A stretch of 64,000 nt of DNA from an uncultured Alphaproteobacteria bacterium. GTDB taxonomy: Bacteria > Pseudomonadota > Alphaproteobacteria > RF32 > CAG-239. The notes beneath the pieces are model-generated. The model was not told where the DNA came from. It saw nothing but the letters and a program-made list of their open reading frames with translations, and did not search any database. Both the position numbers and the translations under genes were made by a program. Below, piece by piece: positions 3,414 through 22,633 of the stretch. The stretch is taken from contig CALXTD010000002.1 of the NCBI GenBank assembly GCA_944391315.1, positions 24,573 to 88,572 of the forward strand, read 5' to 3'. Positions within the stretch are counted from its first letter, which is position 1. Every line of letters begins with the position of its first letter.

Positions 3414-4748
3414 ATGTTGAATTCGCGGGAATGTGCGGTTTTGACCGTAATGCTGTCGGCGGCAGGATTGTTGCCGATGAGCGCAATGGCAGATATTTCT
3501 TTTACCGAGGGTGGAGAACGACTTATCAACACACTTCACACACACCTCTATTCTCCGTCCTCGGGCTTGTCTTCTTCTGATGAGATTAAGCTTGCAGCGG
3601 TGTGTTTTATTAATGATACTTCGGCTTGTAGTGGTGAGACGTTTGGCAATACCGAAAACAGTGGTGGAAACAGTGATTCTGGTGGAGCGCCTGATTATGA
3701 TTTGAATGATGCCGAACGTTGCCGCAAAGAAGGTTATACTTTGACTTCTTGTGCAGCCGGAGAAACACCGGAAGGCTTTTGTATTTATAACAGCAATTAC
3801 TTCGCTCGTTGCGTATGCCCATCGGGTTATAAAACTTGTGAACCGCCTTATTACGGTGTCGGACAAGCTTGCGGCAATAAATATGCATCTTGCGAAGAAG
3901 ATACCGAACGTGCTTGTAAAGAACTTGATTCCGAATTCACTGACACTTGTCAAACAGGCTGGAAAGTCGATCCGAATAATGCTTGCGAATACGACCCAAC
4001 TTATGGAAAATGCTGTAACCTTTGCGAAGGTTATGATTATACAACTATTCCGGAAGGGTATATTGCTGACGGTGCCGCTTGTGCGGATTGCAACGGGATA
4101 AGCAAATATAAAATCAAAATTAACCCTTGCGATGGATTCCAAGACTGCGGCGTTATGGGTGGCGATACCGGCGCTAAAACTTGCATGTCCGGTTCGCAAA
4201 TAAAATACGATAACTGCAAACCTTGCCCGAATTTGGGAACTCTAAGTTCTTGTCCGAGCCCTTTTAAATGTACTTATGAAGCATGCTCAAATCGTTACTA
4301 CAAGTCTGGATGTCAGTCCGGTTATACATGGAATGCTTCTAATAAAACCTGCACGCAACAATGCAGTAGTTCCTATAAGTATACTTGTACAGGAAGCTAT
4401 CAAACCGGCGGAAGCGGCACGGCTTGTGGTGGAAAATATACTGCTTGTAAATGTTCAAGTGGATATAGCTGGAATGGTTCTAGTTGTGAGAGAGCAAGTT
4501 ATACAGAAGGGCTGCAAGTTTATTGTACTGAAGCAACTTTAGAACCTTCATATTTGGGACAGCATTTTTATTGTGAAGGTACCAGTGTAGGGTGTTGTTA
4601 TTGTAACGGACGTTATCTCACGCAATACACTGGTTCATCACTTTTTTATTCTAGCGTGTACGTAAATAAAGATTTTGTTTTTGAGCCAGGGTGGTATAGT
4701 GCTAGTAATGGTTATACATGTATTTGTTATTATGACGAATGTTACTAA
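3414..4748 (+). CDS. secreted cysteine-rich modular protein, unknown function (paralogue of 41248..42057)
   Basis: 444 aa with an N-terminal signal-like segment (AVLTVMLSAAGLLPMSAMA). Cys is very abundant, with recurring C-G-x-K-Y-x-x-C and CxC..GY.W motifs. About 65% of positions look identical to the 269-aa protein at 41248..42057 over the shared modules (LHTHLY..DEI.LAAVCF, GYDYTTIP.GYI.DG.AC.DC, NPCDGFQDCG, KYDNCKPCPNLGT). Confidence 0.8.
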   Translation: MLNSRECAVLTVMLSAAGLLPMSAMADISFTEGGERLINTLHTHLYSPSSGLSSSDEIKLAAVCFINDTSACSGETFGNTENSGGNSDSGGAPDYDLNDAERCRKEGYTLTSCAAGETPEGFCIYNSNYFARCVCPSGYKTCEPPYYGVGQACGNKYASCEEDTERACKELDSEFTDTCQTGWKVDPNNACEYDPTYGKCCNLCEGYDYTTIPEGYIADGAACADCNGISKYKIKINPCDGFQDCGVMGGDTGAKTCMSGSQIKYDNCKPCPNLGTLSSCPSPFKCTYEACSNRYYKSGCQSGYTWNASNKTCTQQCSSSYKYTCTGSYQTGGSGTACGGKYTACKCSSGYSWNGSSCERASYTEGLQVYCTEATLEPSYLGQHFYCEGTSVGCCYCNGRYLTQYTGSSLFYSSVYVNKDFVFEPGWYSASNGYTCICYYDECY

Positions 4749-4840: not shown

Positions 4841-5395
4841 TTATAATTCCCAGCTGCGGGAGAATTCTTCGTTCTTGAACAAGGCGGCTAAGCCGGTGAT
4901 TTGTTTTAAACGCAAAATTTCATCTGCGGACATGCCGATATTGCGGGCAATCCAAGCGTCGCTCTTTTCAAGTTCAAGCAGCTCCTTAACAATGTTGCTC
5001 ATCAAGTCAACATTGTGGCTACCGCGGGCGCGGTTGTGACGAATCGTTGAGGCAATTCTTTCGCCTAAGTCTTTATCTATCACAACAACTGGAATTTTGC
5101 CGTTCTCTCTGGCTCTGATGCGGTCCGATATCATCATGGTTGTATAGCGGTGGAATCCGTCAACGATAATGTATTCGTCTTTTTCTTTGTCATGATAGCA
5201 GACAATCGGCTGGGTAAAGCCATCTTCCCAGATGGATGTTTCAAGCAATTTCATCTCAGGTGGGGCTACTCTGTTCGGGTTGTAGTCATTGGCTTTTATT
5301 TTTTCAAGCGGGATGGCCTGAACATTATAAACCGGACTGATAAACTTTTTGCCGTTGTTTGATGCTTCGGCGGTGGTTGATTTTTTTTCTGTCAT
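4841..5395 (-). CDS. ParB/sulfiredoxin-like nuclease-domain protein (IbrB/DndB-like)
   Basis: Motifs IPLEKIKANDYNPNRV, IIVDGFHRY and RHNRARG are typical of ParB N-terminal-like domains. The start is set at ATG 5395, 10 nt after the stop of the upstream gene. The track ORF extends to 5497 but overlaps that gene. Confidence 0.8.
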   Translation of the reverse strand: MTEKKSTTAEASNNGKKFISPVYNVQAIPLEKIKANDYNPNRVAPPEMKLLETSIWEDGFTQPIVCYHDKEKDEYIIVDGFHRYTTMMISDRIRARENGKIPVVVIDKDLGERIASTIRHNRARGSHNVDLMSNIVKELLELEKSDAWIARNIGMSADEILRLKQITGLAALFKNEEFSRSWEL

Positions 5396-5405: not shown

Positions 5406-6707
5406 CTATAAGTTACGATATTTGTTGAGTAATTCTTTTTCTCTTTCAGACTGTTTTTTGGTCTGAGCAAAGCCCATGTGTTTGCACAAGTGGTCATTTT
5501 TCAGAATGCAGACTGCCATGCGTTTCCATGACGGAATGTCAATGGTCGACTTGATGTCGTCGGTGCTGTCCGGTGTGCCTAAAAAGCGAACTTGTTCTTT
5601 GACGCTGTGATAAGGGCTTGGGCCGTTGCGGCGAATGTTATAGTTGCAGGCTTCGAGCTCCTGAATCGCTTTTTCATCGACAACGCCGCCTTTGCGCCAC
5701 CAGAATTTGATTGAGGTTTTGAATTTCTCAATATAATTTTTTCTCATCTCATCCGGCAGGGTGGCCAGCAAAAATTTGACGTAAGACCGCCATGTGTGCC
5801 CTTTAGGCAAAGTGATGCGGCGGCTGCCGAGTAATTTTGTGTTGCCATACATGGCGCCGAAGTTTGCACCTTGTACACGGCCGACAACTCTGACCCAAGT
5901 GTCAGGTTCTAATACGCGGTATAGGTTTAAGCCTTCTTTGGCTGCCTCATGAAATGGGCTGGCAACGCGCATTTGGTGAATCGATAATCCTGCTTTATAG
6001 AACAAATCATAAATCTTGTTATAATCGAATCCGTATTTGCCGTTTGCAATCCAGACATCTTTGGTGGTCCAGTCATAAAGCGGGTAGGCGTTATACCAGT
6101 TTTTGCCCATCTTAGTGGTCCACTGCTTATTATCAATTAAGTCTTTGCGCGCATTGGCATAAGCACGGAATCGGTTGAGCGACTCGTCGGCTCTTATGCC
6201 CAGCAGGCAGATTGATTTGCCTTTATGTTGGCGAGAAAACCAGTCTGCAAAATCAGCATAAAGATCCTCTTGAACCATTTTGTATTTGTAAAAATCAAAC
6301 GGGTTGTTATTGAGGTTTATAATATAAGGCATGCTGGGCATTTCTCTGACCCATTTGTCTTTTTCATCCGGATCCCAAGTGTACCAATACATTTGATAGT
6401 TACTGACAGCACAACGTGAGCCCATCGGCAGACATACCCAGTAAGGATCTATACCTTCCAGATTGTTTTCAAACATGCGGGTGACAAACTCGGTGGTTTG
6501 TTTGTATTGTGCTTCAAAATCCTGATGAAAAACGCCTATCTTTCTTTTGATATTATTGCGGCGCTTATAGTCTAATACCAGATTTAGCAACAACCCGCTG
6601 TCTTTACCACCGGAAAAAGAAACATATATATTGTCGAAATTATCGAATATATATTTTATTCTTTCATTTGTTGCTTCATATACACTCTTATCGAGGTATT
6701 TTTTCAT
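5406..6707 (-). CDS. PP-loop ATP pyrophosphatase, PAPS-reductase-like (IbrA/DndC-like)
   Basis: PP-loop motif VSFSGGKDSG lies near the N-terminus, and the 433-aa length includes a long C-terminal extension as in IbrA-type proteins. Start ATG 6707 overlaps the upstream stop as ATGA. Confidence 0.85.
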   Translation of the reverse strand: MKKYLDKSVYEATNERIKYIFDNFDNIYVSFSGGKDSGLLLNLVLDYKRRNNIKRKIGVFHQDFEAQYKQTTEFVTRMFENNLEGIDPYWVCLPMGSRCAVSNYQMYWYTWDPDEKDKWVREMPSMPYIINLNNNPFDFYKYKMVQEDLYADFADWFSRQHKGKSICLLGIRADESLNRFRAYANARKDLIDNKQWTTKMGKNWYNAYPLYDWTTKDVWIANGKYGFDYNKIYDLFYKAGLSIHQMRVASPFHEAAKEGLNLYRVLEPDTWVRVVGRVQGANFGAMYGNTKLLGSRRITLPKGHTWRSYVKFLLATLPDEMRKNYIEKFKTSIKFWWRKGGVVDEKAIQELEACNYNIRRNGPSPYHSVKEQVRFLGTPDSTDDIKSTIDIPSWKRMAVCILKNDHLCKHMGFAQTKKQSEREKELLNKYRNL

Positions 6708-7951
6708 AATCTTAGTGCCTCCTCTTTGGAAATCATGCTGCAAAGGTTACTGACGACGTTTTCTTTCATCAAAAGACTTTGCCTCATCATTTCATCCAGT
6801 CCTGTTTTTACCCACAGATTATATATTTTTATCTCATGCTGCCGGTCATGCTGCGGAAGATTTTTCAAGGCTTGATGCTTGAACTTATAATCAAAGGTTT
6901 GGGAAAAGAATATCACATTATTACAATTCTGCATATTTAACCCTGAATTATCCACACCATATGTGCTAAATAATATATTAGTTTTTTTTTCGAACTCTTT
7001 CAAGGCGCGATTTTTATTTATTTTTCCGGCTAAAACTGAATATTCTCCCGGTTTGAACCAGCCACATTCTTCAAAAAAGTTTATTTCGTCTCTGAATTTT
7101 ACATAAATAACGACTTTTTCTTTTTTTAATTTAATGTCACTCACGAGCTCAAAAAGTTTTTCGACTTTGTTTTGGCAGATGGTGTACATATGTTGGAATC
7201 GGTGGATGATTTCAATAAACGGAGCCTTTGAACGGCGCTCAAGATATAAATTTTTTTCTTCTTGATAGCAGTGTTCTTCTTTTGGTGTGAGATCGCAGTA
7301 AATGTCATAATTTTTGAAATATTCGTGATATTCGGTTTCGTTTTCAAAAATGTAGGGTCTGATTTTTTCTATCAGAGAGACTTCTTGTTCGGGGTATGAC
7401 CATCTTTTGGCTTGCTGAAAAGCGCTTTTTAGCTTTTTTAGGTAGGCGTGATTAAACTGGATTTTGGTCATGTTTAAAATTTGGGGATTGATAAACTGTA
7501 GTTGGGCGTAAAAATCGACCAAACCGCCGGAAACCGGAAGTTCGGTTAAAATCAGTCGATATTTGAACAAAGGGCCGAGTTTTATTAGCTCTTTGGTTCT
7601 TTTGGATTTTGAATTTTTTATAATCAAGCAGTTGTCAACAACGCAGAAGGCTCTTTTATTGGCGACTAAGTCATGAATTTGCAAAAGTGTTAGCGTTGAA
7701 AAAGATGCGCATTCTATCGGAAAGACAAACAGTTTGCTGCGGAAGCCTTCGGAGTATTTGTCTAAGTATTCTTTATAGGTTTTTGAGTGAATAATATGTT
7801 CGCGGCTTATCCAGATGATGCAATCAATTTCTTCCAGTTTTGAATAGATTAAATCAAAGGCAAGTTGGATTCTGTCTTCTTGATTTTTACGATAAATGAT
7901 GCCGGATTTTAGTTTGTCAAGTCGCTCGTAAATAGACATTGGTATTTCCAT
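6704..7951 (-). CDS. SNF2-family-derived protein with degenerate ATPase motifs
   Basis: FCVVDNCLIIKNSKSKRTKELIKL..KYRLILTELPVSGGLVDFYAQLQFINPQIL parallels SNF2 motifs II/III (DEAH.IKN..S....L..L....RL.LTGTP..N...DL......F..P). The C-terminal half (KVVIYVKF..ILFSTYGVDNSGLNMQNCNNVIFF..HQALKNL) parallels Helicase_C. No GxGKT Walker A was found. An AAGGAG RBS precedes ATG 7951. Confidence 0.7.
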   Translation of the reverse strand: MEIPMSIYERLDKLKSGIIYRKNQEDRIQLAFDLIYSKLEEIDCIIWISREHIIHSKTYKEYLDKYSEGFRSKLFVFPIECASFSTLTLLQIHDLVANKRAFCVVDNCLIIKNSKSKRTKELIKLGPLFKYRLILTELPVSGGLVDFYAQLQFINPQILNMTKIQFNHAYLKKLKSAFQQAKRWSYPEQEVSLIEKIRPYIFENETEYHEYFKNYDIYCDLTPKEEHCYQEEKNLYLERRSKAPFIEIIHRFQHMYTICQNKVEKLFELVSDIKLKKEKVVIYVKFRDEINFFEECGWFKPGEYSVLAGKINKNRALKEFEKKTNILFSTYGVDNSGLNMQNCNNVIFFSQTFDYKFKHQALKNLPQHDRQHEIKIYNLWVKTGLDEMMRQSLLMKENVVSNLCSMISKEEALRL

Positions 7952-8116: not shown

Positions 8117-8506
8117 ATGAAAAAATATTTTTTGGCTCTGGCTTGTTTGGCGGCAGGGCTTTCTGCGGCTTCTGCTCAGGCAAAAAAGCATTATGGCGGT
8201 TTTGTCGGGCCGGAAACGCAATATTCGCCTACGACGGTTGCCAAAGTTAAAAATTTGTCGGATGATGCTCGCGTTATGCTGCAGGGAAATATTATCAGCA
8301 GCATGGGTGATGAAGACTATATGTTTAAAGATTCTACCGGAACAATAAAAGTCGAAATTGATAAAAAGAAATGGGACGGTATGACCGTTACGCCGCAAGA
8401 TATGGTTGATATCAGAGGAAAGGTCGATAAACATTGGTTCGGCGAGCCCGAAATTGATGTTAAAAGCATTTCTTTAGTTTCTCAGCCTATGTCTGCGACA
8501 AAATAG
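8117..8506 (+). CDS. YgiW/YdeI-type periplasmic OB-fold (BOF) stress protein
   Basis: It has a signal peptide (MKKYFLALACLAAGLSAASA) and the characteristic V.L.G.I......D.Y.F.D.TG.I.VEID...W pattern. The size is 129 aa. Confidence 0.8.
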   Translation: MKKYFLALACLAAGLSAASAQAKKHYGGFVGPETQYSPTTVAKVKNLSDDARVMLQGNIISSMGDEDYMFKDSTGTIKVEIDKKKWDGMTVTPQDMVDIRGKVDKHWFGEPEIDVKSISLVSQPMSATK

Positions 8507-8599
8507 TTCCTTTCATCCTTGCTTCACAAATCCCGCCGATTGCCTTCGACGGGATATTATTTTTGAAAGAGCAACGCTTTTTTGTCGGAAAGAGAGGCT

Positions 8600-9199
8600 T
8601 TAATCGGCCGTTTTGAAGCGCGAATCGAGGCTGACAAATGTTTTTTCATCGGCCGGTGATACAATTCGACCAAAGGGCATTTGGGCGTTGAGTTTCCAGC
8701 TTAAGGGAAGCTTGAATTCATCATAGATAAATTTTTCGACCAAAGGTGAATAGTGTTGCAAGCTGGCGCCAATCTTGTTGTCGGCAAACAAGCACCACAG
8801 CGCAAACTGGAGCATGCCGCTTGATTGAAGTGACCAGTCGGCGAATCGCTCTTTATAGGCCGGATATTGTTTTTCAAGCCCGTGGACAACGTCTTCGTCT
8901 TCAAAAAACAGAACCGTGCCGAATCCGGCGGCAAAGGAATTTATTTTGGCTTTTAGTTCAGCATGTTTGGCTGCCGGTGCGACTTTGGTTAGTTCTGCGT
9001 AAGTCAGATTCCAGAATTTTTGATTGCTATCGTTAAACAAAGCAAGGATTCGTCCGGACTGTGAATTAAAAGCTGTGGGGCAATATTTCAATGCTTGTTT
9101 GATTAAATCCTTAACTTCTTCCTCAGATTGAGAGATTTTGTTGTCGATTGCGTATATTGAACGTCTTTGTTCCATGAGGTTGTAAAAGCTTTTATCCAT
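8600..9199 (-). CDS. nitroreductase family protein
   Basis: The N-terminal segment QRRSIYAIDNKIS..KYCPTAFNSQSGRI is typical of a nitroreductase family subgroup. The size is 199 aa. Confidence 0.7.
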   Translation of the reverse strand: MDKSFYNLMEQRRSIYAIDNKISQSEEEVKDLIKQALKYCPTAFNSQSGRILALFNDSNQKFWNLTYAELTKVAPAAKHAELKAKINSFAAGFGTVLFFEDEDVVHGLEKQYPAYKERFADWSLQSSGMLQFALWCLFADNKIGASLQHYSPLVEKFIYDEFKLPLSWKLNAQMPFGRIVSPADEKTFVSLDSRFKTAD

Positions 9200-9531
9200 C
9201 GTTATAAATCCTTTCTTTTTAAGTCATTATCTATTATATATTCTCTTTTTTTTAATTTTTGAATAAAAGCATGAAAAAATTTTGTTTAGTATTTTCAATA
9301 ATTTATCGCGTCATCCTACAAAATTTTTGGTTTTTTTTGATTTTTTTACACATTGATTCTTCAATATTTACGGAGGGTTTGAGCGTTTTAATTTGTCGGG
9401 ACATTTTTGGAGAAGACAAAAATGCTTTTTTTTGTTATATCTTGTTATATGCTGGACGAAGTTGTGTTCGGCAGTCTTGTGGTAAATACCTTGCGGTGAT
9501 TTGTATTCCATATAATATTCATTACTGTTCC

Positions 9532-9564
9532 GGAGAGAAGTTTTTGCTTCTCTCCTTTTTCTTT
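9532..9564 (+). terminator. intrinsic terminator immediately upstream of terS
   Basis: GGAGAGAAG(9532-9540) TTTTTG CTTCTCTCC(9547-9555) followed by TTTTTCTTT. terS ATG is at 9581. Confidence 0.6.
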
Positions 9565-9580
9565 GAGGTTTGTTGGTGTT

Positions 9581-9958
9581 ATGTCTGATTTAACTTTTCG
9601 ACAATTACGATTTGTGGAGGAATTTATCAAGTGTGGTGTCGGTGCTCAAGCGGCTCGGCTTGCCGGTTATTCCTGTCCGCAAAAAGCTGCCGCCCGCCTT
9701 AAGAAAAATCCTAAGATAAAATTAAAGCTCGATAGTCTGCGACAAAAAGCCATGCAGCGGGCTCAACTCTCGTTGGAAAAGCTGCTGGAAGAACTGGAAG
9801 AGGCGCGGCAGGTGGCCATTGATAAAGAAATGGCTGCCGCGGCTGTCTCTGCTTCAATGGGGAAGGCCAAGCTTCTCGGTTTGGATAAGCCCCAAAAAGA
9901 ACATGAGGAAGAAAAAGAAAGTGATATTCCTCAGGTGTTGGTTAAATTTGTTGAATAA
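9581..9958 (+). CDS. terminase small subunit
   Basis: LTFRQLRFVEEFIKCGVGAQAARLAGYS..AAARLKKNPKI resembles the Terminase_2-type small subunit HTH. It lies directly upstream of terL. Confidence 0.8.
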   Translation: MSDLTFRQLRFVEEFIKCGVGAQAARLAGYSCPQKAAARLKKNPKIKLKLDSLRQKAMQRAQLSLEKLLEELEEARQVAIDKEMAAAAVSASMGKAKLLGLDKPQKEHEEEKESDIPQVLVKFVE

Positions 9959-9970
9959 AGCGGAGGTCTT

Positions 9971-11293
9971 GTGAAACAGGTTGAAGTTCAAATTCCTAAA
10001 ATTTTTGCGCCGCTTTTGACATCTGATTATCGTAACAAATTTTTTTATGGCGGGCGTGCCGGCGGAAAGTCTTATGCCTTTGCCGATAGTCTTCTTCTTT
10101 TGGGGCGGCAAAAAAGGCTGTTTATTGCTTGTCTGCGTGAGATTCAAAACAGCATGAAAGATTCGGTCTATAAGCTTTTATGTGACCGAATCTCTTTTTA
10201 TGGGCTTGATGATTATGAGATTTTGGATTCTAAAATCGAAAACAAAATAACCGGTTCGCGCTTTGTTTTTAAAGGTTTGCGGAATCAGGACAGTCAAAAA
10301 ATAAAATCACTTGAAGGCGTTGATATCGCTTGGATTGAAGAGGCTCAGGCCATTACCCGCAAAAGCTGGGAAATCTTGGAGCCGACTATTCGTAAAGATG
10401 GGTCGCAAATTTGGATTTCCATGAACAGAGAAGAGGAAAACGACCCTTTGTGGGTTTTGGTGGCGGCGAATCCTGATGCACGCACTTTGGTGGTGAAGGT
10501 TAATTATTACGATAATCCGTTTTGTCCTGAAGAAATAAGGCTGCAAGCCGAAAAATGCAAACAGTCTTCTCCCGAAGATTATGAGCATATTTGGCTCGGT
10601 GAGCCAAGGCGGCAGGGAAATACCAAGCTGATTTCGGCCACAGATGTGTGTCACGCTTTTCAACAACAGCTGCCGATGCCGTCTTCGCCTTTGATTATCG
10701 GGGTTGATGTAGCGCGCTTTGGTGATGACAAAACCGTGTTTTGTTTTCGGCGGGGGCGAAGTTGTTTTCGAATAGAAAGTTTTTCGGGGCTTGATGTGGT
10801 GGAAGTGGCTAATCAGGCCACTTTTTTTATCAGAGAAAATCAGCCCAAGCGGATGTTTGTGGATATTGGCGGCGTGGGAGCCGGTGTTTATGACATTCTT
10901 AAAGACAGAGGCTTAGGCGAGGTGGTGAAAGCCGTTAATTTTGGCGAACGCGCCTTGCTTTCCGAGCGTTATGCCAACCGGCGTGCCGAGATGTGGGACA
11001 ATCTGCATGATTGGCTTATCTCCGAGCCGCAGGTGGCTTTGTTTTATGATGAGGATTTGCTGACCGATCTTTGTTGCGTCAACAAAAAATATGACCGCCG
11101 CGGGCGCTTGCTGCTTGAAGAAAAAGATGAAATCAAAAAGAGGCTCGGGCGTTCGCCGGACAAGGCTGATGCGCTTGCTTTGACTTTTGCCGAGCGGTTT
11201 TTTGATAATCTGGCGCCGCAAATGTATCGCCCCAAGCAGCTCTTATGGGAAGATGTGTTTAACTCGTATAATCAAGGAGATGACAAATGGTAG
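9971..11293 (+). CDS. terminase large subunit (PBSX/Terminase_3-like)
   Basis: Walker A in FYGGRAGGKSYAFAD, 440 aa, GTG start. The position is canonical. Confidence 0.88.
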   Translation: MKQVEVQIPKIFAPLLTSDYRNKFFYGGRAGGKSYAFADSLLLLGRQKRLFIACLREIQNSMKDSVYKLLCDRISFYGLDDYEILDSKIENKITGSRFVFKGLRNQDSQKIKSLEGVDIAWIEEAQAITRKSWEILEPTIRKDGSQIWISMNREEENDPLWVLVAANPDARTLVVKVNYYDNPFCPEEIRLQAEKCKQSSPEDYEHIWLGEPRRQGNTKLISATDVCHAFQQQLPMPSSPLIIGVDVARFGDDKTVFCFRRGRSCFRIESFSGLDVVEVANQATFFIRENQPKRMFVDIGGVGAGVYDILKDRGLGEVVKAVNFGERALLSERYANRRAEMWDNLHDWLISEPQVALFYDEDLLTDLCCVNKKYDRRGRLLLEEKDEIKKRLGRSPDKADALALTFAERFFDNLAPQMYRPKQLLWEDVFNSYNQGDDKW

Positions 11294-11556
11294 AAGCTTG
11301 TCCGAACTTTGTGCCGGTGACCGATCGTTTGGTCTTAAAACTTGAACCAAAAAATTCGGAAACCGCCGGCGGACTTATCCTTGCCGATGATACTTATGCC
11401 GTGCGCAATGTGGCAACGGTTTTGGCAATCGGTCCCGAGGTTAAAGCCGATGTGGCCGTTGGGGACAGAGTGATGTTTCACTGTTTTGACGAGCTGCCGG
11501 TTTGGGACGGCGATATTGTTGTGATACGTGATAAAAGCTTGTTGTTTAAATTTTAG
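11287..11556 (+). CDS. GroES/Cpn10-like co-chaperonin encoded in the head module
   Basis: 89 aa. V.DR.VLKLEPKNSETAGGLILADD....R.ATVLAIGP..K....VGDRVMF matches the GroES pattern (mobile loop ..T.GG(I/L).(L/I)...). It overlaps the terL stop. Confidence 0.7.
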   Translation: MVEACPNFVPVTDRLVLKLEPKNSETAGGLILADDTYAVRNVATVLAIGPEVKADVAVGDRVMFHCFDELPVWDGDIVVIRDKSLLFKF

Positions 11557-11567
11557 GAGTTTTCTGA

Positions 11568-13466
11568 ATGTCAAAAAAAGTTTTTGAGTCAAAGCCGGCT
11601 CTTTGGGCAGAAAAAATCAGTGCGGCTGAGGCGGCTTATCAATCTTATTATAACTTAATAGATGAAACGCGCGAGAGCTATAAACTGGCCTCGTCAGGGC
11701 TGAGTTCGTCGCTTAAGGTCGGAAGTGCGTGCAGCATTTTTTGGTCGGGAATCGAGACGCAAAAGCCGTTTCTTTATTTCAAACAGCCAAAGCCCTGTGT
11801 CGATAGGATTAATAAAAATTATTCTCCGGCGGAGGCCTTGGCCTGTCGCCTGATGGAGCGATTATTGGCTTGGGATTTGTCGCGGTTTGATTTTGATTCG
11901 GTGGCAAAATATGCGCGAAATGATTTTTTAATTTCGGGTTGCGGAATTTTGTGGGAAAGCTATAAGCCAGAATTTACAACCGTGCTTGATGAGCAAAATC
12001 ATGAGGTTTTGGTTAAAACCGGTGAAAAAGTCGTGTCTGAATATGTGGATCCGAAAAACTTTTTGGCCGATACCGACCATGTCGGAATATGGGAAGATGT
12101 GACTTGGGTGGCTCGCAAGCATTTTCTCAGCGCCAAGGCTTTGCTTGAGGCTTTTGCTTCTTCTCCGGCGTTGTTGACGGTGCCGGTTGCCGATGATGAT
12201 TGTTATAAAGAATATTGTGTTTATGAAATTTGGGACAAAGAAGACAAGAAGGTTCGTTGGTGGTGCAAGGATTTTCCCGATGCCTTTTTGCGTGAGGTTG
12301 ATGATCCGCTCGGGTTGGAAAACTTTTTCCCTTGTCCGAAACCGGTGTTTGCGACACAATCCAATGATTCAATCATTCCGGTTCCGGATTTTTGTATGAT
12401 TAAAGCCGATTTGGAAGAGTTGTCCGGTGTTATTGATCGAATGAGTTTGACCATGAAGGCGCTCAAAGTGACCGGTGCTTATGACAGCTCTTTTCCTCAT
12501 TTGGCGGATATTTTGAACAAAGATGTTTCTCTCGTGGCGGTGCAAGATTTTGATAAGCTTAAGTCGGCCGGTGGGCTGAAAGGTATTGTCGACTTTATGC
12601 CGGTTGAGCAATATATTTCTGCTTTGCAGGCTTTGGCTTTGCGCCGTGATGATATTATTGAGAATATTTATCGTATTACCGGAATTTCGGACATTATGCG
12701 AGGGACTTCCTCTCAGTCCGAAACAGCAACCGCGGTTAAGCAAAAAACAAATTTCGGAACACTGCGCAACCAAGACCGCCAAAATGATATGCAGCGGTTT
12801 TTGTGTGACTTATATGCGTTAAAAGCCGAAATTATTTGTGAGCAGTTTGCGACTGAACATGTTCTTTCCTTTGTATCTCCTGAAGAAAAAAATGATGCTC
12901 CTCTGGTTCAGGCCGTGATTGCTTTGCTGAAAACCGATAAAATGCGCAACATGGTGCTTTCGATTGAGACCGATGCCGTGTTTGACCAAGAGTCCGAGGC
13001 TTCTCAGATTAGTGCGGCGGTTAAGTCGGTTTCTCAGCTTATTCAAGATGCTTTTCAGATTGTGTCGGTACAGCCGGCTTTGTTGCCGCTTTATCAACTT
13101 ATGGCTGAGGCTTTGACTGCTTCTATGCCGAAATCGCGCTCCTTTGAATCGGTGTTGTCAAAGGTGTTTGATGATGTTGCACGCGATTTGGCTCAACCGG
13201 AGGCGTCTTCTTCCAATTCATCCTCTCCGGTGTCAAAGCCTCAGGCAGCCTCTCCTCAACAGCCGAGTTTTTCCGATCAGCTAAAACTTATGGAGCTGCG
13301 CAATACTTATGAGCTTGAAAAAGAGCAAAATGCTCTTAAAGCCAGAGAACTTGCCCTTAAGGAAAAATCTGAGAATGTGAAGCTTATTTTGGCGGATAAA
13401 GATTTTCGTGCGGAGGCGCTTAAACTGCAAGCCGAAGCGCAAAAATCAGCTCCGTCCAAGGCATGA
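11568..13466 (+). CDS. portal protein (positional and size-based call)
   Basis: 632 aa, immediately after the terminase genes, with an acidic/coiled C-terminal tail. No motif-level confirmation. Confidence 0.6.
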   Translation: MSKKVFESKPALWAEKISAAEAAYQSYYNLIDETRESYKLASSGLSSSLKVGSACSIFWSGIETQKPFLYFKQPKPCVDRINKNYSPAEALACRLMERLLAWDLSRFDFDSVAKYARNDFLISGCGILWESYKPEFTTVLDEQNHEVLVKTGEKVVSEYVDPKNFLADTDHVGIWEDVTWVARKHFLSAKALLEAFASSPALLTVPVADDDCYKEYCVYEIWDKEDKKVRWWCKDFPDAFLREVDDPLGLENFFPCPKPVFATQSNDSIIPVPDFCMIKADLEELSGVIDRMSLTMKALKVTGAYDSSFPHLADILNKDVSLVAVQDFDKLKSAGGLKGIVDFMPVEQYISALQALALRRDDIIENIYRITGISDIMRGTSSQSETATAVKQKTNFGTLRNQDRQNDMQRFLCDLYALKAEIICEQFATEHVLSFVSPEEKNDAPLVQAVIALLKTDKMRNMVLSIETDAVFDQESEASQISAAVKSVSQLIQDAFQIVSVQPALLPLYQLMAEALTASMPKSRSFESVLSKVFDDVARDLAQPEASSSNSSSPVSKPQAASPQQPSFSDQLKLMELRNTYELEKEQNALKARELALKEKSENVKLILADKDFRAEALKLQAEAQKSAPSKA

Positions 13467-13481
13467 GCCTAAGGAGGAAAT

Positions 13482-13712
13482 ATGGCTCATTTTTCAAGAG
13501 AGTGGAGCGAAGATTTGTTATTGCCCGATGGGGCTTATGCGTCTTCGGTTCATGACATTGAACGCTACCTGCGCCGGAATAATTTGGCAATGGCCAGCGA
13601 TTATTCGGACGACTTTCGGAAGTCTGTCCGCTATCAACAAGAAAAAAAGCTGCGAGATGAAAATTTTGCAGCTTTTTTGCAACAGTATAAGAGGTTAATT
13701 TGGAATGAATAA
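13482..13712 (+). CDS. hypothetical phage protein
   Basis: A 76-aa ORF with an AGGAGG RBS, lying between the portal and scaffold genes. Confidence 0.5.
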   Translation: MAHFSREWSEDLLLPDGAYASSVHDIERYLRRNNLAMASDYSDDFRKSVRYQQEKKLRDENFAAFLQQYKRLIWNE

Positions 13713-14580
13713 AACTGAAACACGAAAAATTATTGAACAGGAGCTTGAAAAAGCTACTAGTCCTTCAAACAGCGACATTCAGCCCAACGAAGAAGCTCTG
13801 TTGGTTGTGCCGGCCGAAGAAGAAAAAACTTTTTCGGAGCCGCCGGTCGGCCTTGAGGCTGAGCTTGCTGAGGATTTTGTCCTGCTGCCCTTAAAGTGGC
13901 GCAAGTTTTTGTGCGAAAAAAATGCTGAAACCGAAGACAAAATTTCTGCTTTATCGGCTCAAGTCGAGCGATTGAAGTGGGTTGATGATTTTGTTCAGGC
14001 TCATGCCGAGCGCATTAACAAATATGGGCTTTCTTCTCCTCAGATGTGGTTGGAATATCTGGCTAAGGTTGAGGATTTGCTGGAAGAAAATCCGTCTCAA
14101 GGCGTGCGCTTTTTAGCAGAGGCTTATGGGGTGGCTTTTGCGCCGGCCTCTCAGCCGGTGGCTTCTTTACAGTCAAAAGTGGCTGCGCTTGAAGCTCAGT
14201 ATCAACAGCTGAAATCGCAGGTTGATGCTAAAGAACGTCAGATGTTTCGATCTTTGTTTGATCGCTTTATGGGTGAGAAAAACGAAGACGGTTCTCCCAA
14301 GCATAAATATTTTTATAAAGTGCGGCCGATTATGGCGGCGCTCCTGAGTCATAATCTCGCCGGAAATTATGAAGACGCTTATGCTCAGGCTTTGTGGCTT
14401 AGTCCCGAGGTTCGCCAAGAATTAATCGAGGCTCAGCTCAGTGATGCTCTCAAGAAAAAAGCCGCTGATGCTCAAAAGGCTCAGCAGGCCGCTTTTGAGG
14501 CAAAAGGTAGGGCGCTTCGTCCGGCTGAAGACCAGCTGACGACACGCCAAATCTTGGAACGTGTTATTAATGAAAACTAA
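13705..14580 (+). CDS. scaffolding protein (candidate)
   Basis: 291 aa, acidic, rich in A/E/Q/L and helical-looking. It lies directly upstream of the capsid gene. Confidence 0.55.
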   Translation: MNKTETRKIIEQELEKATSPSNSDIQPNEEALLVVPAEEEKTFSEPPVGLEAELAEDFVLLPLKWRKFLCEKNAETEDKISALSAQVERLKWVDDFVQAHAERINKYGLSSPQMWLEYLAKVEDLLEENPSQGVRFLAEAYGVAFAPASQPVASLQSKVAALEAQYQQLKSQVDAKERQMFRSLFDRFMGEKNEDGSPKHKYFYKVRPIMAALLSHNLAGNYEDAYAQALWLSPEVRQELIEAQLSDALKKKAADAQKAQQAAFEAKGRALRPAEDQLTTRQILERVINEN

Positions 14581-14598
14581 ACTTTCGTAAAGGATTTT

Positions 14599-15567
14599 AT
14601 GATGGCTAACTCTAATTATAATGACGCACTTACAACTTCTCTTGCTCATCGCAGTAAGCAACTTGCTGATAATGTCAGCAAAAATAATGCTTTGCTTAAA
14701 CGTTTGCAGGAAAAAGGAAATATTCGCGAAATCTCCGGCGGTTCTTCTATTTTGGAAGAGCTGGAATATGGCGAAGGCGATATGATTTGGTATAGTGGTT
14801 ATGATACCATTTCTTATACCAACAAGCAGCTCTTTACCGCAGCTGAATATGCTTTGAAACTTTGTGCCGTTCCGGTTGCTATTTCCGGTGAAGACTTGCT
14901 TAAAAACTCCGGCAAAGAAAAAATTGTCGATCTCTTTGAAAAAAGAGTTGAAAATGCCATGAAAACCATGAGCAACCAGATGTCTAAGGCAATTTACAGC
15001 GATGGTACAGGGTCTTCCGGTAAAGAAATCGGCGGATTGCGCTTCTTGGTAGCGGATTCTCCGGCTACCGGTACGGTCGGCGGTATTGATCGTGCGACTT
15101 CCGGCAATGAATTTTGGCGCAATAAAGCCACAACCGCCGAAGAAGCTTTGACTTCTGAAACCATCGGCAAAGCAATGCACAGTATGTATCATTCTTTGTG
15201 TCGTGGTACCGATAAGCCGGATTTAATCGTGACCGGTGATGATATGTATTCGCTTTATGAAGATTCTTTAACCCCGTTACAGCGTTATACCGATCCTAAA
15301 GCGGCTGACTGCGGTTTTGCTACATTGCGCTTCAAAGGTGCTGATGTGGTTTGTGATGGCGGACAAGGCGGCTTTTGTCCTGAAAAGCACATGTATTTTC
15401 TTAATACCGATTATCTCTATCTGCGTTCTCACAAAGACCGCAATATGAAAGTTATCGGTGGTGACAGAATGTCGGTCAACCAAGATGCTTTATACAAAAT
15501 CGTGGGTTGGGCCGGTAATCTGACCATGTCTAATGCTTCTTTACAGGGTGTTTTGATTAACGCATAG
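14599..15567 (+). CDS. major capsid protein (candidate)
   Basis: 322 aa, follows the scaffold gene, and is itself followed by a strong terminator, a typical high-expression arrangement. The call is positional. Confidence 0.65.
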   Translation: MMANSNYNDALTTSLAHRSKQLADNVSKNNALLKRLQEKGNIREISGGSSILEELEYGEGDMIWYSGYDTISYTNKQLFTAAEYALKLCAVPVAISGEDLLKNSGKEKIVDLFEKRVENAMKTMSNQMSKAIYSDGTGSSGKEIGGLRFLVADSPATGTVGGIDRATSGNEFWRNKATTAEEALTSETIGKAMHSMYHSLCRGTDKPDLIVTGDDMYSLYEDSLTPLQRYTDPKAADCGFATLRFKGADVVCDGGQGGFCPEKHMYFLNTDYLYLRSHKDRNMKVIGGDRMSVNQDALYKIVGWAGNLTMSNASLQGVLINA

Positions 15568-15576
15568 CGGCGTGGG

Positions 15577-15606
15577 GGCGGAGCGCTTTAATGCTCCGCC
15601 TTTTTT
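15577..15606 (+). terminator. terminator after the capsid gene
   Basis: GGCGGAGC(15577-15584)/GCTCCGCC(15593-15600) followed by TTTTTT. Confidence 0.75.
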
Positions 15607-15652
15607 GATGCCTTAGGAGTTCTTTTTATTTAATTTTTCGGGAGTTATTTCT

Positions 15653-16210
15653 ATGGATATGGATTTTGATATGTTTCAGCAGTTGTTGGACAGTGCTAAA
15701 AATAAGTCTGATAATACGGTGGCCGCGCGTTTTTATGATCGTTTGATAAAATCGGACAAGCTTGATGAAAACGGTTTGCCCGTGTTTGATACGGTTTGTT
15801 TTGTGGAAATCAGAATGCGCGATTGTCACGATGTGTTTGACCAGCCTGCCGATGCTGATAAAATTCAACGCTTTCCGACCGAATATAACCGCTATTTGCT
15901 GGCGAAAAAGCAAGTCGAAAAAGGAGCTCCTTTGGATCAATTTGCTTTTCTGACGGCCGCAGAAATCGAAACGCTTAAATTTCGTGGTATTTTTACGGTT
16001 GAGGCTTTGGCTGAGCTTGACGAGGAAAAAGCGCGGCTTATCGGTGTTTTATCCGAGCATAAGGCTGCAAAACTTTTTTTGCAGCAGGCAAAAGGGCACA
16101 AAGCTTTAATCGAAGCACAAAAACGCGAAGAGCGTTATCTGGCGGAAATTGATTTTCTTAAAAGCCAAATTGAAAAATTGCGCCGTTTGAATAATCGCGC
16201 AAAAAAATAA
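15653..16210 (+). CDS. hypothetical phage structural-module protein
   Basis: A 185-aa ORF with a coiled-coil C-terminus. Confidence 0.5.
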   Translation: MDMDFDMFQQLLDSAKNKSDNTVAARFYDRLIKSDKLDENGLPVFDTVCFVEIRMRDCHDVFDQPADADKIQRFPTEYNRYLLAKKQVEKGAPLDQFAFLTAAEIETLKFRGIFTVEALAELDEEKARLIGVLSEHKAAKLFLQQAKGHKALIEAQKREERYLAEIDFLKSQIEKLRRLNNRAKK

Positions 16211-16234
16211 CTTTTTTATTTTTTCGGAGGTGTT

Positions 16235-16957
16235 ATGGCGACTATTTTGCAGATTTGTCAGGAAGCGGCCAGTTTGTTGGCGACGCAAGCGCCGCAGGGG
16301 CTTTTTGATTCAAACTCTCAGCAAGAGGCTATTTTTTTGAGTATTGCAAAGTCTACGCTGAACAGTCTTCAGCGTTATGGCAACTGGCAAGAGCTGACCA
16401 AAGAAGGTGAGCTTAGAACACAGCCGTCCAGACTGGTTTATTATATTCAGGACTTTTGCCCTGATTTCTATTGTTTGCTGAACAATACGGTTTATGTGAA
16501 AGATCATTCGGAAAAAGTTATCGGTGCGCTTTCGCCCGAGCAATATATGCGTGAGCGTTATTTTTCTTTTTCTGATATCGGCATAAAGTTCAAAATTCAG
16601 CAGGGGCGTTTTGTGTTTTTAACTGAGCCGCCCGCTGGTCTTAAAATCGTGTTTAATTATCGTTCGGCAAATGTTTGTTATGATCCGGAGCTTGAGCTTT
16701 ATGGTAATCCGGAAAAAACAGAAATTACCAAAAATACCGATGTGCCGCTTTTTGATCCTTATTTGGTAAAGCTCGGCATTATTTGGCGCTGGTATAAACG
16801 CAACGGTATGCCTTATGAAGAAGAGTTTAACGAGTATCAAACCGAAGTGAAAAAAGCTTTTGCTTCAGGTTTGGCAACCAAGGATATTGCTTTGGCAGAA
16901 AATTGTCCGAAGGTGCTTAATGAGGGGGTGATTGTTTATGCAACGTCGAAAAGTTAA
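16235..16957 (+). CDS. hypothetical phage protein (head-tail adaptor position)
   Basis: A 240-aa ORF preceded by a GGAGG RBS. The call is positional only. Confidence 0.45.
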   Translation: MATILQICQEAASLLATQAPQGLFDSNSQQEAIFLSIAKSTLNSLQRYGNWQELTKEGELRTQPSRLVYYIQDFCPDFYCLLNNTVYVKDHSEKVIGALSPEQYMRERYFSFSDIGIKFKIQQGRFVFLTEPPAGLKIVFNYRSANVCYDPELELYGNPEKTEITKNTDVPLFDPYLVKLGIIWRWYKRNGMPYEEEFNEYQTEVKKAFASGLATKDIALAENCPKVLNEGVIVYATSKS

Positions 16958-18500
16958 TCGTCAAAATCGTTCCTTAAACTATACGCTGCCTTGTCCTATC
17001 GGTGGGTTAAATATGCGTGACAGCTTAGGCCAGATGAAGGAAAGCGACGCTATTGTTATGGATAATTATTTTCCGGGAGAGACCAAGGTTTCTTTGCGCA
17101 AAGGGTATGTGCGCTATGTGATTACCGGAAAGCCGGTTCATACCTTGGTAGAGCATAAGGCCGAAAGCGGATTAAACCGTTTTTTTGCTTTTTGCGATAA
17201 TGAGCTGTGGGATATTACTTCTAAATCTTCTCCTGAAAAATTAGCGGATAATTTTACTAATGACAAGTGGCAGACGGTGCAATTTAAAAATCGTTTGTTT
17301 GCCGTTAACGGTGCCGATGCGCCTCAAACTTATGTGATTGAGGAAAATGGCGAAGGCGTTTGGAAAAATGCTGAATTTACCGGTGACGGTCTTATTCCGG
17401 CGTCTTTGGTAAATGTCACTTCTTCCAAACAGCGTTTGTGGTTTGTGGAAAAAAACAGCATGAAAGCTTGGTATTCCGAAAATGCGGCGGAAGTGCAAGG
17501 AAAATTGCTGTGTTTTGATATGTCGACGATAGCGCGTGATGGCGGGGCTTTGGTGGCGATTGCTTCTTGGACCCAAGATGGCGGGATGGGCATAGATGAC
17601 TTGACCGTTTTTATTACCTCGGAAGGTGAGGCTTTGATTTACAGCGGGTCTAATCCTAATTCTGCCGAAGATTGGGAGCTGCGCGGGGTTTATCGGGTCG
17701 GGCGTCCAATTGGGTATCGTTGCATATTGCAATATCAGGGGGATGTGGTGCTGGTTTCGGTTGACGGTTATTTGCCGCTGTCAAAGGCTTTGCCGCTGAA
17801 CAGTGCCAATAACTCTCAGATTTCTTTTTCGGATAAAATAAGAGGGTTGGTTTTGGAGCGGACGGCTTTGTCTCAGGACAAATTCGGGTGGCAGCCGTTT
17901 ATTTATAATCGTGGCGGCTATGCTTTGTTTAATGTTCCGGTTAATCAGAGCTTTGAGCAGCATGTGGTTAATCTTAATACCGGTGCTTGGTGTCGCTTTA
18001 CAAATATTCCGGCGCTTTGTTGGGGGCTTTATCAGAATCGGGCTTATTTCGGAATGCATGACGGAATTATGCTGTTTGATGAAAGTTATGCTGATGAGCT
18101 TAATCCTATCGAGGGGCATATTGAGCAGGCTTATTCTTCTCTCGGTATAGCCGCTATGAAAAAGCTGCAACTGCTTAATCCGCGTACAAAGGCCTTTAAT
18201 CCCTTTGCTTTAACGCTTTATGCCAATGCTGATTTTGCTGATGATTCTCAGCCTTTTGTGGAGAATATCGGCAATGATTCAACAGATAGGACTTTTTGGA
18301 ACGAGGCCAAATGGAGTTCTTTGTCAGTGCCTTCGGGGACCAAATGGGCGGTGCTCAAAGGGGTTATTCGCAGTCAATGGATAGGGACTTCGGCAACGGG
18401 GCTGAAATTCAGTCTTGTATTCAAAACAAAGACCAAAGGAAATGCTATTGAGTGGTATGGAACAGACTGTCGTTTTGAACAAGGTTCCGGTTTTCTTTGA
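16932..18500 (+). CDS. large virion structural protein (tail hub/adaptor candidate)
   Basis: 522 aa, the largest post-capsid ORF. The call is positional only. Confidence 0.45.
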   Translation: MFMQRRKVNRQNRSLNYTLPCPIGGLNMRDSLGQMKESDAIVMDNYFPGETKVSLRKGYVRYVITGKPVHTLVEHKAESGLNRFFAFCDNELWDITSKSSPEKLADNFTNDKWQTVQFKNRLFAVNGADAPQTYVIEENGEGVWKNAEFTGDGLIPASLVNVTSSKQRLWFVEKNSMKAWYSENAAEVQGKLLCFDMSTIARDGGALVAIASWTQDGGMGIDDLTVFITSEGEALIYSGSNPNSAEDWELRGVYRVGRPIGYRCILQYQGDVVLVSVDGYLPLSKALPLNSANNSQISFSDKIRGLVLERTALSQDKFGWQPFIYNRGGYALFNVPVNQSFEQHVVNLNTGAWCRFTNIPALCWGLYQNRAYFGMHDGIMLFDESYADELNPIEGHIEQAYSSLGIAAMKKLQLLNPRTKAFNPFALTLYANADFADDSQPFVENIGNDSTDRTFWNEAKWSSLSVPSGTKWAVLKGVIRSQWIGTSATGLKFSLVFKTKTKGNAIEWYGTDCRFEQGSGFL

Positions 18501-18519
18501 TATTTTTGGGGAGGCATAT

Positions 18520-18933
18520 ATGGAAATTATTCAAGATTCCTGCGGGCTGATTGCCCATTGGGTTTGTGCTTCTTTGGGCGAAAGTGATGTTTGGGTCGGC
18601 GAAAATTATACCATTGGTTTTGTGGAAGGCGGAAAGCTTGTCGGCGGGCTTATTTTTAATAATTATCGCCCCAATCATGATGTTTGGTGGACAATCTATA
18701 CCAATGACAAGCGTTGGTGCTGTCGAAAAGTTTTACGCTTTATCTTTGATATGGCGTTTAATGTGTTGAAATGTCGAAGAATTAGCCTTTTGGTGAGCGT
18801 TTCAAACAAAGCCTGTCTGAATTTGGTAAAAAAGCTGGGCTTTAAAATTGAGGGGCGTCTTCGTGCTTTTCGTGAAAACGGCGAGGACGCTTTTGTTCTT
18901 TCTATCTTAAATTCTGAATCTTTATGGAGTTAA
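18520..18933 (+). CDS. GNAT-family N-acetyltransferase embedded in the tail module
   Basis: Start ATG 18520 is preceded by GGGGAGG. The C-terminal half (RRISLLVSVSNKACLNLVKKLGFKIEGRLR) resembles GNAT motifs A/B. Confidence 0.6.
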   Translation: MEIIQDSCGLIAHWVCASLGESDVWVGENYTIGFVEGGKLVGGLIFNNYRPNHDVWWTIYTNDKRWCCRKVLRFIFDMAFNVLKCRRISLLVSVSNKACLNLVKKLGFKIEGRLRAFRENGEDAFVLSILNSESLWS

Positions 18934-18937
18934 TGTT

Positions 18938-19621
18938 ATGAGTAAATCTATCGGAAAAATTTTGGGTGCAGGTGGGGCCAGTACTTCTTATAATCAAGCA
19001 GAAAATGATGCGCTTAATTATTTGAAAAATATTGATACTTCTCTGGCGGATAAAACTTATGATAATTTTGCGCAATATGGTTATGATCTTAGTCAGACGC
19101 TTAATAATCGTCCGGATTATATTTATTCGGTCGATGGATCTGATGAGGCGCGTCAGCGTATGGAAAATGCGGTTTATAATTCTTATGTTGACAAGCTGAC
19201 GCCGCAATTTGAACAGCAGACTTCGGATTTGCAAACACGTTTGGCCAACCAAGGATTGTCGGTTGGGTCAGAGGCTTATCAACGTGCGATGTCTGATTTG
19301 CAAGATTCTCAAAATTCGGCGCTGAATCAGGCTGCTTATACGTCTGTTAATGCAGGCCAAAACTCGTTTTCAAATTCTTTGCGCGATGCGATTTCTTCTG
19401 CCGGATTTACCAATTCTGCTCGTCAGCTGCCGATTAATGAAATTTATTCTTTGATGAAAAATTCGCCCAGTGCTTATGAGAATAATATGAATATTTATTC
19501 GATTCAAAATCAGGCCGAAAATCGTATTAACCAGAACAAGGCCTATAATTCTCAGGCGCAATTTAATGCCGGTAATCAGTTGTTGGGAAATGCTGCCGGT
19601 GTCTTGTTTGGTTTGTTTTAA
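18938..19621 (+). CDS. hypothetical virion protein (N/Q/S-rich)
   Basis: 227 aa, located in the tail module. Confidence 0.45.
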   Translation: MSKSIGKILGAGGASTSYNQAENDALNYLKNIDTSLADKTYDNFAQYGYDLSQTLNNRPDYIYSVDGSDEARQRMENAVYNSYVDKLTPQFEQQTSDLQTRLANQGLSVGSEAYQRAMSDLQDSQNSALNQAAYTSVNAGQNSFSNSLRDAISSAGFTNSARQLPINEIYSLMKNSPSAYENNMNIYSIQNQAENRINQNKAYNSQAQFNAGNQLLGNAAGVLFGLF

Positions 19622-19641
19622 TTCTTTTCGGGAGATGTATT

Positions 19642-20424: not shown

Positions 20425-20426
20425 AT

Positions 20427-20789
20427 ATGACAGGTCGTATTTTACCTTATGCAAATATTATTGAGGTTCGACAGGGCGATAGTTTTACAATCAAGCTTAA
20501 AATTCATAAAGGGGAGAAAGATTTTGATTTGACTGGTGCAAGAGTTAATATGCAAGTGCGCAATATAGAAGGCAATGATTTGAAATTTGATTTGTCGGCA
20601 GAGCCGATTGATACTCAAAAAGGAGAGTTTGCGCTTTTGCTTTCGCCTGTGGAAACAAGTATTGATGTTGGGTCTTATAAAACGGATATTCAACTTTCGA
20701 CCGCAGACGGGCAGATTAACACAATATTTCCTGCCGATGTTAATAAGGTGGCAATTTTTAGAATTACGGAGCAGGTGACTCATGAGTGA
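20427..20789 (+). CDS. hypothetical phage protein
   Basis: A 120-aa ORF between two fibre genes. Confidence 0.45.
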   Translation: MTGRILPYANIIEVRQGDSFTIKLKIHKGEKDFDLTGARVNMQVRNIEGNDLKFDLSAEPIDTQKGEFALLLSPVETSIDVGSYKTDIQLSTADGQINTIFPADVNKVAIFRITEQVTHE

Positions 20790-21909: not shown

Positions 21910-21913
21910 CAAA

Positions 21914-22390: not shown

Positions 22391-22630
22391 ATGCTTATGG
22401 ATTGGGAAGCTGTCGGCATTATCTTATCCTTATGCGGTGTGTTGTTTAATTTTATCCGTTTTGGAAAATGGCAAGGCATTATTGAAACCAAAGTTGCAGC
22501 TTTGGAACGTGATTCTTCAATTACGCTCACAAAGTTTGATGTGCTTAATAAAGCTTTGCGTGAAAATAATGAGATTTTAACCGAACTAAAAGTCAAAATA
22601 GAGCTTATGCTCGAAAAAAAAGGAAGGTAA
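22391..22630 (+). CDS. small membrane protein (holin candidate)
   Basis: 79 aa with one N-terminal TM segment (AVGIILSLCGVLFNFI) and a coiled C-terminus. It is the first gene of the lysis block. Confidence 0.4.
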   Translation: MLMDWEAVGIILSLCGVLFNFIRFGKWQGIIETKVAALERDSSITLTKFDVLNKALRENNEILTELKVKIELMLEKKGR

Positions 22631-22633
22631 AAC

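Follow-up and report, generated by a model that had tools for sequence, protein, structure and literature searches.

An SNF2-like protein with an erased nucleotide site is a probable non-catalytic subunit of the IbrA/IbrB module in gut Alphaproteobacteria

Proteins of the SNF2, IbrA and IbrB families are encoded side by side in a range of bacteria and phages. Listeria monocytogenes lmo1309-1311 is annotated as such a triad (PMC5736727), and YbdN and YbdM pair a protein of PAPS_reduct and DUF3440 domains with a ParB-like protein (PMC9068703). The same domain pairing is found in the IbrA and IbrB proteins discussed below. The E. coli K-12 pair is not known to have an SNF2 partner. Phage triads include those of Lactobacillus phage CR28 (WFF43741-43), Streptococcus phage Pika (CDS0027-29) and the Flavobacterium phages FCL-2 and FPSV-F7. 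The closest described analogy to an SNF2 protein deprived of its ATP site is DndH of the Dnd defence system, which carries an N-terminal inactive SWI2/SNF2 C-lobe without ATP-binding signatures or arginine fingers, proposed to be a DNA-binding module (PMC10853773). The literature that we searched gave annotation-level mentions only, both for the mechanism of the SNF2-IbrA-IbrB trio and for bacterial pseudo-SNF2 proteins. Here we analyse a triad in a 64,000-nucleotide stretch of DNA (hereafter the window) from an uncultured gut alphaproteobacterium (assembly GCA_944391315.1, contig CALXTD010000002.1, positions 24,573 to 88,572). Its first gene encodes an SNF2-fold pseudo-ATPase of 415 amino acids (aa), P0001 (6704..7951, minus strand), which we consider likely to be an ATPase-dead but functional, non-catalytic subunit of the IbrA/IbrB module.

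The window's triad resembles those of phages in its three shared families (phrog_62, phrog_2302 and phrog_2159), its SNF2 core of ~400 aa and its packed, overlapping genes, and the gene order is common to CR28, Pika and the genome loci. Two differences stand out. The phage SNF2 proteins keep the motifs GTGKT, DES, NGTP and R..R.GQ, whereas P0001 has lost all four; and the phage triads reside on mobile elements, whereas that of the window is surrounded, in a 1.5-Mb genome, by chromosomal genes of housekeeping type. In FCL-2 (L089, NC_027125.1, 3471-6335) the last two genes are swapped, giving the order SNF2-like, ParB-like, phosphoadenosine phosphosulfate (PAPS) reductase, and the triad is flanked by the genes for the large terminase and the portal protein, an unusual spot for non-structural genes. 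DndH shares with P0001 a prokaryotic SNF2 origin, the disappearance of ATP signatures and a place inside a DNA-handling system, but in DndH the first lobe is gone and the second is one part of a large multidomain protein, whereas P0001 is a free-standing, two-lobe protein with other partner enzymes. More broadly, the C-terminal inactive cassette of the spliceosomal helicase Brr2 and the pseudokinases illustrate folds that remain selected after catalytic loss and are used as interaction or regulatory platforms; the dead cassette of Brr2, a eukaryotic protein, controls an active cassette of the same polypeptide. These are eukaryotic examples from unrelated families, whereas the genome encoding P0001 has no live SNF2 protein.

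Membership of P0001 in the SWI2/SNF2 superfamily is apparent at the level of both sequence and predicted fold. Pfam models for the two lobes score above their cut-offs (SNF2-rel_dom, 31.9 bits against 24.9; Helicase_C, 27.9 against 23.5), phmmer comparison with Protein Data Bank (PDB) sequences retrieves Ino80 (E = 2e-12) and SsoRad54 (E = 1e-7), and phrog_62, annotated 'DNA helicase', matches at E = 5e-35. The initial annotation had recognized SNF2 similarity from the sequence alone, and these searches bear it out as significant; both peptide strings that it quoted lie within the 415-aa open reading frame. It had also proposed that the fold is retained. We built an AlphaFold2 (AF2) model from 70 homologues (predicted local distance difference test score, pLDDT, 78.5), which displays two alpha/beta lobes, in agreement with that proposal; the SWI2/SNF2 fold is defined by two RecA-like lobes with SNF2-specific helical insertions. 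Foldseek comparison of the model with the PDB returned SWI2/SNF2 ATPase cores as all of its top 50 matches, with E-values down to 2.6e-18 and TM-scores of 0.74 or less, including SsoRad54, CSB, Rad26, ISW1, Ino80, DDM1 and Mot1. At 415 aa, P0001 is a phrog_62-type protein, a subfamily consisting of a core of ~390-480 aa free of accessory domains. It carries the subfamily signature [VI][IV][FY][FY][SD][QN][TGD][FW][DSN][YF] as VIFFSQTFDY at residues 346-355, lies immediately upstream of IbrA-like and IbrB-like genes on the same strand, and nests inside the IbrA/IbrB-associated minimal SNF2 subfamily in our tree. Dead and intact SNF2-like groups alike have an isoelectric point of ~9. P0001 is the sole PF00176 match in its genome, which is 97.9% complete, so there is no live SNF2 motor in the genome for it to work with.

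Against this preserved fold, the nucleotide site of P0001 has been erased. Family alignments place motif I (Walker A) at residues 17-29 (7865..7903, minus strand), where GIIYRKNQEDRIQ stands in place of the GALFMxMGTGKTK of intact homologues; the alignment to intact relatives is gap-free, and GTGKT has become Q24 E25 D26 R27 I28. The Q-motif is replaced as well. Walker B (motif II, residues 105-108; 7628..7639, minus strand) reads VDNC where intact relatives have VDES, so that D106 is kept and the catalytic glutamate is asparagine. Motif III (residues 133-144; 7520..7555, minus strand) reads LILTELPVSGGL instead of LILNGTPxxxxx. Motif VI (residues 360-370; 6842..6874, minus strand) reads QALKNLPQHDR instead of QxExRxxRxGQ, with N364 and Q367 in place of the two arginine fingers. 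A HMMER alignment to Ino80 gives the same correspondence, setting VVDNCLIIKN on ILDEAQAIKS, LILTELPVSGGL on LLLTGTPIQNNM and QALKNLPQHDRQ on QAMDRAHRLGQ. The GxGK[TS] of Walker A, the DExx of Walker B and the motif VI arginines that mark active SWI2/SNF2 ATPases are thus all missing from P0001. These alignments agree with most of what the initial annotation had read from the letters. Its replacements of DEAH by DNCL and TGTP by TELP are reproduced, with DNCL falling on DEAQ and TELP on TGTP of Ino80, as is its substituted motif VI. The missing GxGKT Walker A is now assigned to a defined, replaced site, and no intact Walker A or B had been overlooked, since both sites can be located in family alignments and both are replaced. 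The one reading that did not survive is the change of QN to SG as a sign of decay: intact subfamily members, which read DES and NGTP, also have no QN, and the difference is therefore a trait of the subfamily.

We next consider how widely these losses are shared. A residue table of 61 dead-clade rows and 18 intact homologues shows that the second P-loop glycine, the Walker A threonine, the Q-motif glutamine and the first arginine finger are each kept in 2 of the 61 dead-clade rows. The second arginine finger is kept in 6, and both fingers are present in 18/18 intact homologues. The catalytic glutamate of Walker B persists in 39 of the 61. A word-indexed search yielded 75 homologues, and a scan of species-representative genomes yielded 78 loci. 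Every locus reaching far enough has an SNF2-like gene followed by IbrA-like and IbrB-like genes. Temperate Lactobacillus and Streptococcus phages carry the triad too, as do phages of Flavobacterium. Intact GTGKT, DES, NGTP and R..R.GQ motifs are found in phages, Clostridia, Opitutales, Planctomycetes, Melioribacteraceae and one Holosporaceae metagenome-assembled genome. Among uncultured gut Alphaproteobacteria (records titled 'Candidatus Scatocola', 'uncultured Azospirillum' and similar), every sampled copy is without those motifs. Homologues in other genomes do, then, share the substitutions: the loss extends across ~58 gut Alphaproteobacteria, whereas more distant homologues, encoded in the same cassette of three genes, have every motif intact. 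Surveying 151 genomes of the order, we found a single SNF2-like copy in 56, of which 54 have no internal stop, and the gene is present in 9/9 sampled genomes of the window's genus. One copy (G052:C5:43658-44882) is interrupted by 5 TGA and 6 TAA codons and another (G037:C3:195510-196736) by a single TAA, which indicates that the cassette is undergoing loss in some lineages of the family.

Maximum-likelihood trees place the loss of motifs on few branches. These trees came from a quick search, with support from the Shimodaira-Hasegawa-like approximate likelihood ratio test (SH-aLRT) only, on ~425 columns with a few motif columns left in. The 51 dead rows from Alphaproteobacteria group in a single clade (SH-aLRT 99) with intact relatives around it, so one change of state suffices to explain them. 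Inside this clade the Walker B glutamate has been lost at least 5 separate times, as would be expected if selection no longer acted on catalysis. Erosion has gone furthest in the window's subclade, where Walker A lysine has changed to arginine, motif Ia proline to arginine and the catalytic glutamate to asparagine. An exhaustive HMMER search covering 1.84 billion representatives revealed a second dead lineage (P0178, P0179 and P0214), in which Walker A reads ESPARTR, EGEQRMQ or GTGRIR and the arginine pair is gone. It sits in a Clostridia-type branch, and because the branches concerned are well supported, two independent changes are implied. The P0178 locus (L091 3355-6592, on a contig of Logan SRR18652140) carries the same triad, its IbrA 44% and its IbrB 70% identical to those of the window. 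The surroundings of this triad look chromosomal, as it adjoins Na/H exchanger and GFO_IDH genes.

Although its nucleotide site is erased, the gene is not in decay. Over its whole length, the SNF2-like gene has a ratio of nonsynonymous to synonymous substitution rates (dN/dS) of 0.03-0.11 (Nei-Gojobori, 16 dead-clade pairs with usable dS), with dS saturated for many pairs and the dN/dS of more distant pairs approximate. With an open frame and values in this range, P0001 does not behave as a pseudogene, and the strong purifying selection indicates that it still does something. By the same method, dN/dS for IbrA and IbrB lies mostly at 0.01-0.06. The SNF2-like protein evolves faster than either partner, with a median pairwise identity of 0.49 compared with 0.77 for IbrA and 0.80 for IbrB. 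Columns conserved across the family tell where the change has fallen: the dead-SNF2 clade keeps 18/51 of them in the SNF2-like protein, with losses at motifs I, II, III, V and VI, but 47/50 in IbrA and 46/47 in IbrB. Within that clade, IbrA retains its PP-loop SGGKDS and the ParB-fold protein its DGxHR and RHNRARG. The SNF2-like protein in turn has conserved blocks away from the ATP site, namely IKN..RT after motif II, YRLIL, FSQTFDY and W..T.L. The initial annotation had suggested a scaffold or DNA-clamp role for P0001 on behalf of the downstream PP-loop/ParB pair, and both the purifying selection and the untouched partners fit a non-motor role of this kind.

The three genes are tightly packed on the minus strand. 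The IbrA-like gene (5406..6707) encodes a PAPS-reductase-type PP-loop domain followed by DUF3440, with SGGKDS intact (Pfam DUF3440, E = 2.6e-77; PAPS_reduct, 1.1e-10; phrog_2302, 1.8e-115). The IbrB-like gene (4841..5395) encodes a ParB/Srx fold with intact DGFHRY and ASTIRHNRARGSH motifs (Pfam ParB_N; phrog_2159, 7.4e-79); its likely start is the ATG at 5393-5395, 10 nt past the IbrA stop, although a longer reading frame from 5497 is possible. At the SNF2-like/IbrA junction, the sequence carries a signal for translational coupling (6704..6724, minus strand). An ATGA overlap at 6704-6707 joins the IbrA ATG (6705-6707) to the SNF2-like TGA (6704-6706), and a Shine-Dalgarno GAGGAGG (6718-6724) lies inside the SNF2-like 3' end, 10 nt upstream of the IbrA start. 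Together with the 10-nt gap between IbrA and IbrB, these features indicate that the three genes form a translationally coupled operon. Scanning the operon sequence gave no convincing sigma-70 promoter upstream of 7951 and no clear terminator after 4841.

Two alternative identities for P0001 were examined and discarded. It is not the downstream part of a split gene with a P-loop fragment upstream: its ATG is preceded, 7 codons upstream, by an in-frame stop, beyond which lies an unrelated gene in divergent orientation (8117-8506, plus strand). Nor does it belong to the defence SNF2 helicases of the DISARM (DrmD), Zorya (ZorD) or Dpd (DpdE) systems. The NCBIfam model for DISARM DrmD gives 15 bits against a cut-off of 610; the PADLOC matches to Zorya ZorD, Dpd DpdE and DrmD are partial and confined to the core; and matches to the defence families DrmD, ZorD, DpdE, DndC and BrxP are weak, partial and far under cut-offs. 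The neighbourhood of P0001 contains none of the Zor, Drm or Dpd partner genes.

Four findings together point to a role of the SNF2-like protein that does not need ATP turnover: the selective loss of its nucleotide site, intact partners, obligate co-translation and the recurrence of that loss. We infer from the replaced motifs that P0001 does not hydrolyse ATP; it probably does not bind ATP either, and may instead bind DNA or its partners. We therefore favour the reading in which P0001 is a functional, non-catalytic subunit made with IbrA and IbrB, and consider it probable. The ancestral module, common in temperate phages and scattered bacteria, would have comprised a minimal SNF2 motor of ~410 aa co-made with IbrA, a PP-loop ATP-pyrophosphatase-type enzyme with DUF3440, and IbrB, a ParB/Srx-fold protein. 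In the common ancestor of one family of gut Alphaproteobacteria with small genomes, this motor appears to have been stripped of the Q-motif, the P-loop, motif III and the two arginine fingers, and the catalytic glutamate that remained would then have been lost several times over. What would have persisted throughout is the fold, together with the basic charge, the translational coupling to IbrA and IbrB and those SNF2 signature blocks that lie away from the ATP site. Most likely P0001 would now act statically, binding DNA through its retained SNF2 surface, IbrA-IbrB, or both, and so positioning or assembling IbrA and IbrB without translocation. Whether such a dead subunit would be a DNA-binding adaptor or a purely protein-binding, regulatory component seems to us about evenly balanced.

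Several observations weigh against this reading. The cassette is absent from 95 of the 151 genomes of the order, which makes it dispensable for the lineage. The AF2 model is of medium confidence only (pLDDT 78.5; predicted template modelling score, pTM, 0.55). Residues by the old ATP site (about 7613-7873 in the window) are still constrained in the dead clade, where position 27 is occupied by K in 42 and by R in 19 of the 61 rows, D106 is invariant (61/61) and K112/N113 are kept in 60/61. Such constraint could reflect residual ligand binding rather than fold stabilization. Some members of the clade, such as L004, still have GSGKI and DES, and these might bind nucleotide. The constrained residues and the retained GxGK and DES are also what can be said for P0001 as a nucleoside triphosphatase or a nucleotide-dependent switch with a remodelled, non-canonical site. 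We consider this unlikely. In P0001 the P-loop glycines have become Q and D with E adjacent, an acidic P-loop, and the Walker A threonine, Walker B glutamate, both arginine fingers and Q-motif have all gone. The repeated loss of the catalytic glutamate is what relaxed constraint on catalysis predicts, and no replacement motif is conserved at the erased sites. A Lys/Arg-Asp salt bridge that steadies the emptied site is one possible reason for the conservation of position 27 and D106.

Other explanations assign the protein a different job, or none. If it were a negative regulator, a brake or decoy holding IbrA/IbrB inactive or off DNA, the coincidence of motor loss with chromosomal residence in small, streamlined genomes would make sense, as unchecked activity against the DNA of the cell itself could carry a cost there, and dominant-negative dead paralogues are a known theme, an example being DndH, for which an inactive DAM domain of this kind has been proposed (PMC10853773). 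The genome, however, has no live SNF2 protein to compete with, and the fixed gene order and coupling imply a subunit co-made with IbrA/IbrB; we give such a brake a small but appreciable chance. It is far harder to credit that the gene is a decaying relic, held open only for the translational coupling of IbrA. The ATGA overlap, the IbrA Shine-Dalgarno inside its 3' end, an evolutionary rate 2-4 times that of IbrA and the stop-bearing copies in G052 and G037 would all suit a relic. Coupling, however, needs an open frame alone and not a conserved sequence, whereas dN/dS is low across the whole length, the length stays at 415-420 aa in ~58 species that are only 35-50% identical, and the clade has conserved blocks of its own (FSQTFDY, IKN..RT and FQ..YT). 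Just as improbable to our minds is the idea that the cassette, dead SNF2-like protein included, is the missing regulator of the adjacent domesticated phage-particle cluster (resembling a gene transfer agent) at 9.5-24 kb. The cassette does lie ~1.6 kb from terS/terL, the arrangement is kept in L006, L007, L008, L017 and L018, where SNF2-like identity falls as low as 48%, and the FCL-2 triad likewise sits between terL and portal genes. Yet the adjacency occurs in only 5 of ~60 alphaproteobacterial loci, and the two do not travel together in the order: 32 of the 151 genomes have both, 24 the cassette only, 67 terL only and 28 neither (odds ratio ~0.56). With no positive co-occurrence and synteny confined to 5 close loci, we rejected a general link between cassette and phage cluster.

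Returning to P0001 as a non-catalytic subunit, what the comparison contributes is a narrower set of possible mechanisms. The cassette itself is widespread and was already known from annotation. New are the clade-wide, single-origin and selected loss in a chromosomal setting, a second independent loss, partner enzymes shown to be untouched and a genome with no second SNF2 gene. An erased motor site beside intact partners and strong selection, arrived at twice over, indicates that the SNF2 component does something besides translocating. P0001 also adds a free-standing, two-lobe prokaryotic case to the short list of pseudo-helicases, and the clade offers a natural mutant series that runs from GSGKI and DES without arginine fingers to the fully erased site of P0001. 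The result does not reveal the function of the IbrA/IbrB module but sharpens experiments on it. A bolder proposal, which we put forward tentatively and with more doubt than conviction, is that the SNF2-like subunit has an essential, ATP-free structural job, loading or holding IbrA-IbrB on DNA, and that the motor is an add-on required only in the mobile, phage-borne setting. If true, the two motor-dead lineages would record how a phage machine that acts on DNA became a static one on the chromosome, and would supply a natural separation-of-function allele for probing the IbrA/IbrB pair.

Neighbouring genes of the cassette have not always diverged in step. When the window is compared with L008, dS is 2.07 for the SNF2-like gene (73% aa identity) and 0.34 for IbrA (97% identity), whereas the L027/L032 pair follows the opposite trend, with 0.47 for the SNF2-like gene and 1.05 for IbrA. 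Such discordance suggests recombination, with breakpoints between these two genes.

Beyond P0001, the window continues with a small protein of 129 aa with a signal-peptide-like N-terminus (8117-8506, plus strand) and a nitroreductase-family protein (8600-9199, minus strand; Pfam E = 2.6e-14), both syntenic in close relatives. They belong to the region at 8117-24102 that holds the phage-like terS/terL/portal cluster, ~1.6 kb from the cassette. The order of cassette, small secreted protein, nitroreductase, terL and portal is kept in the same five loci listed above and is absent from the other ~55. On the other side of the operon lies a gene for a cysteine-rich exported protein (3414-4748, plus strand), members of whose family flank the cassette in L006, L009, L011, L017 and L018, at variable positions and on either strand.

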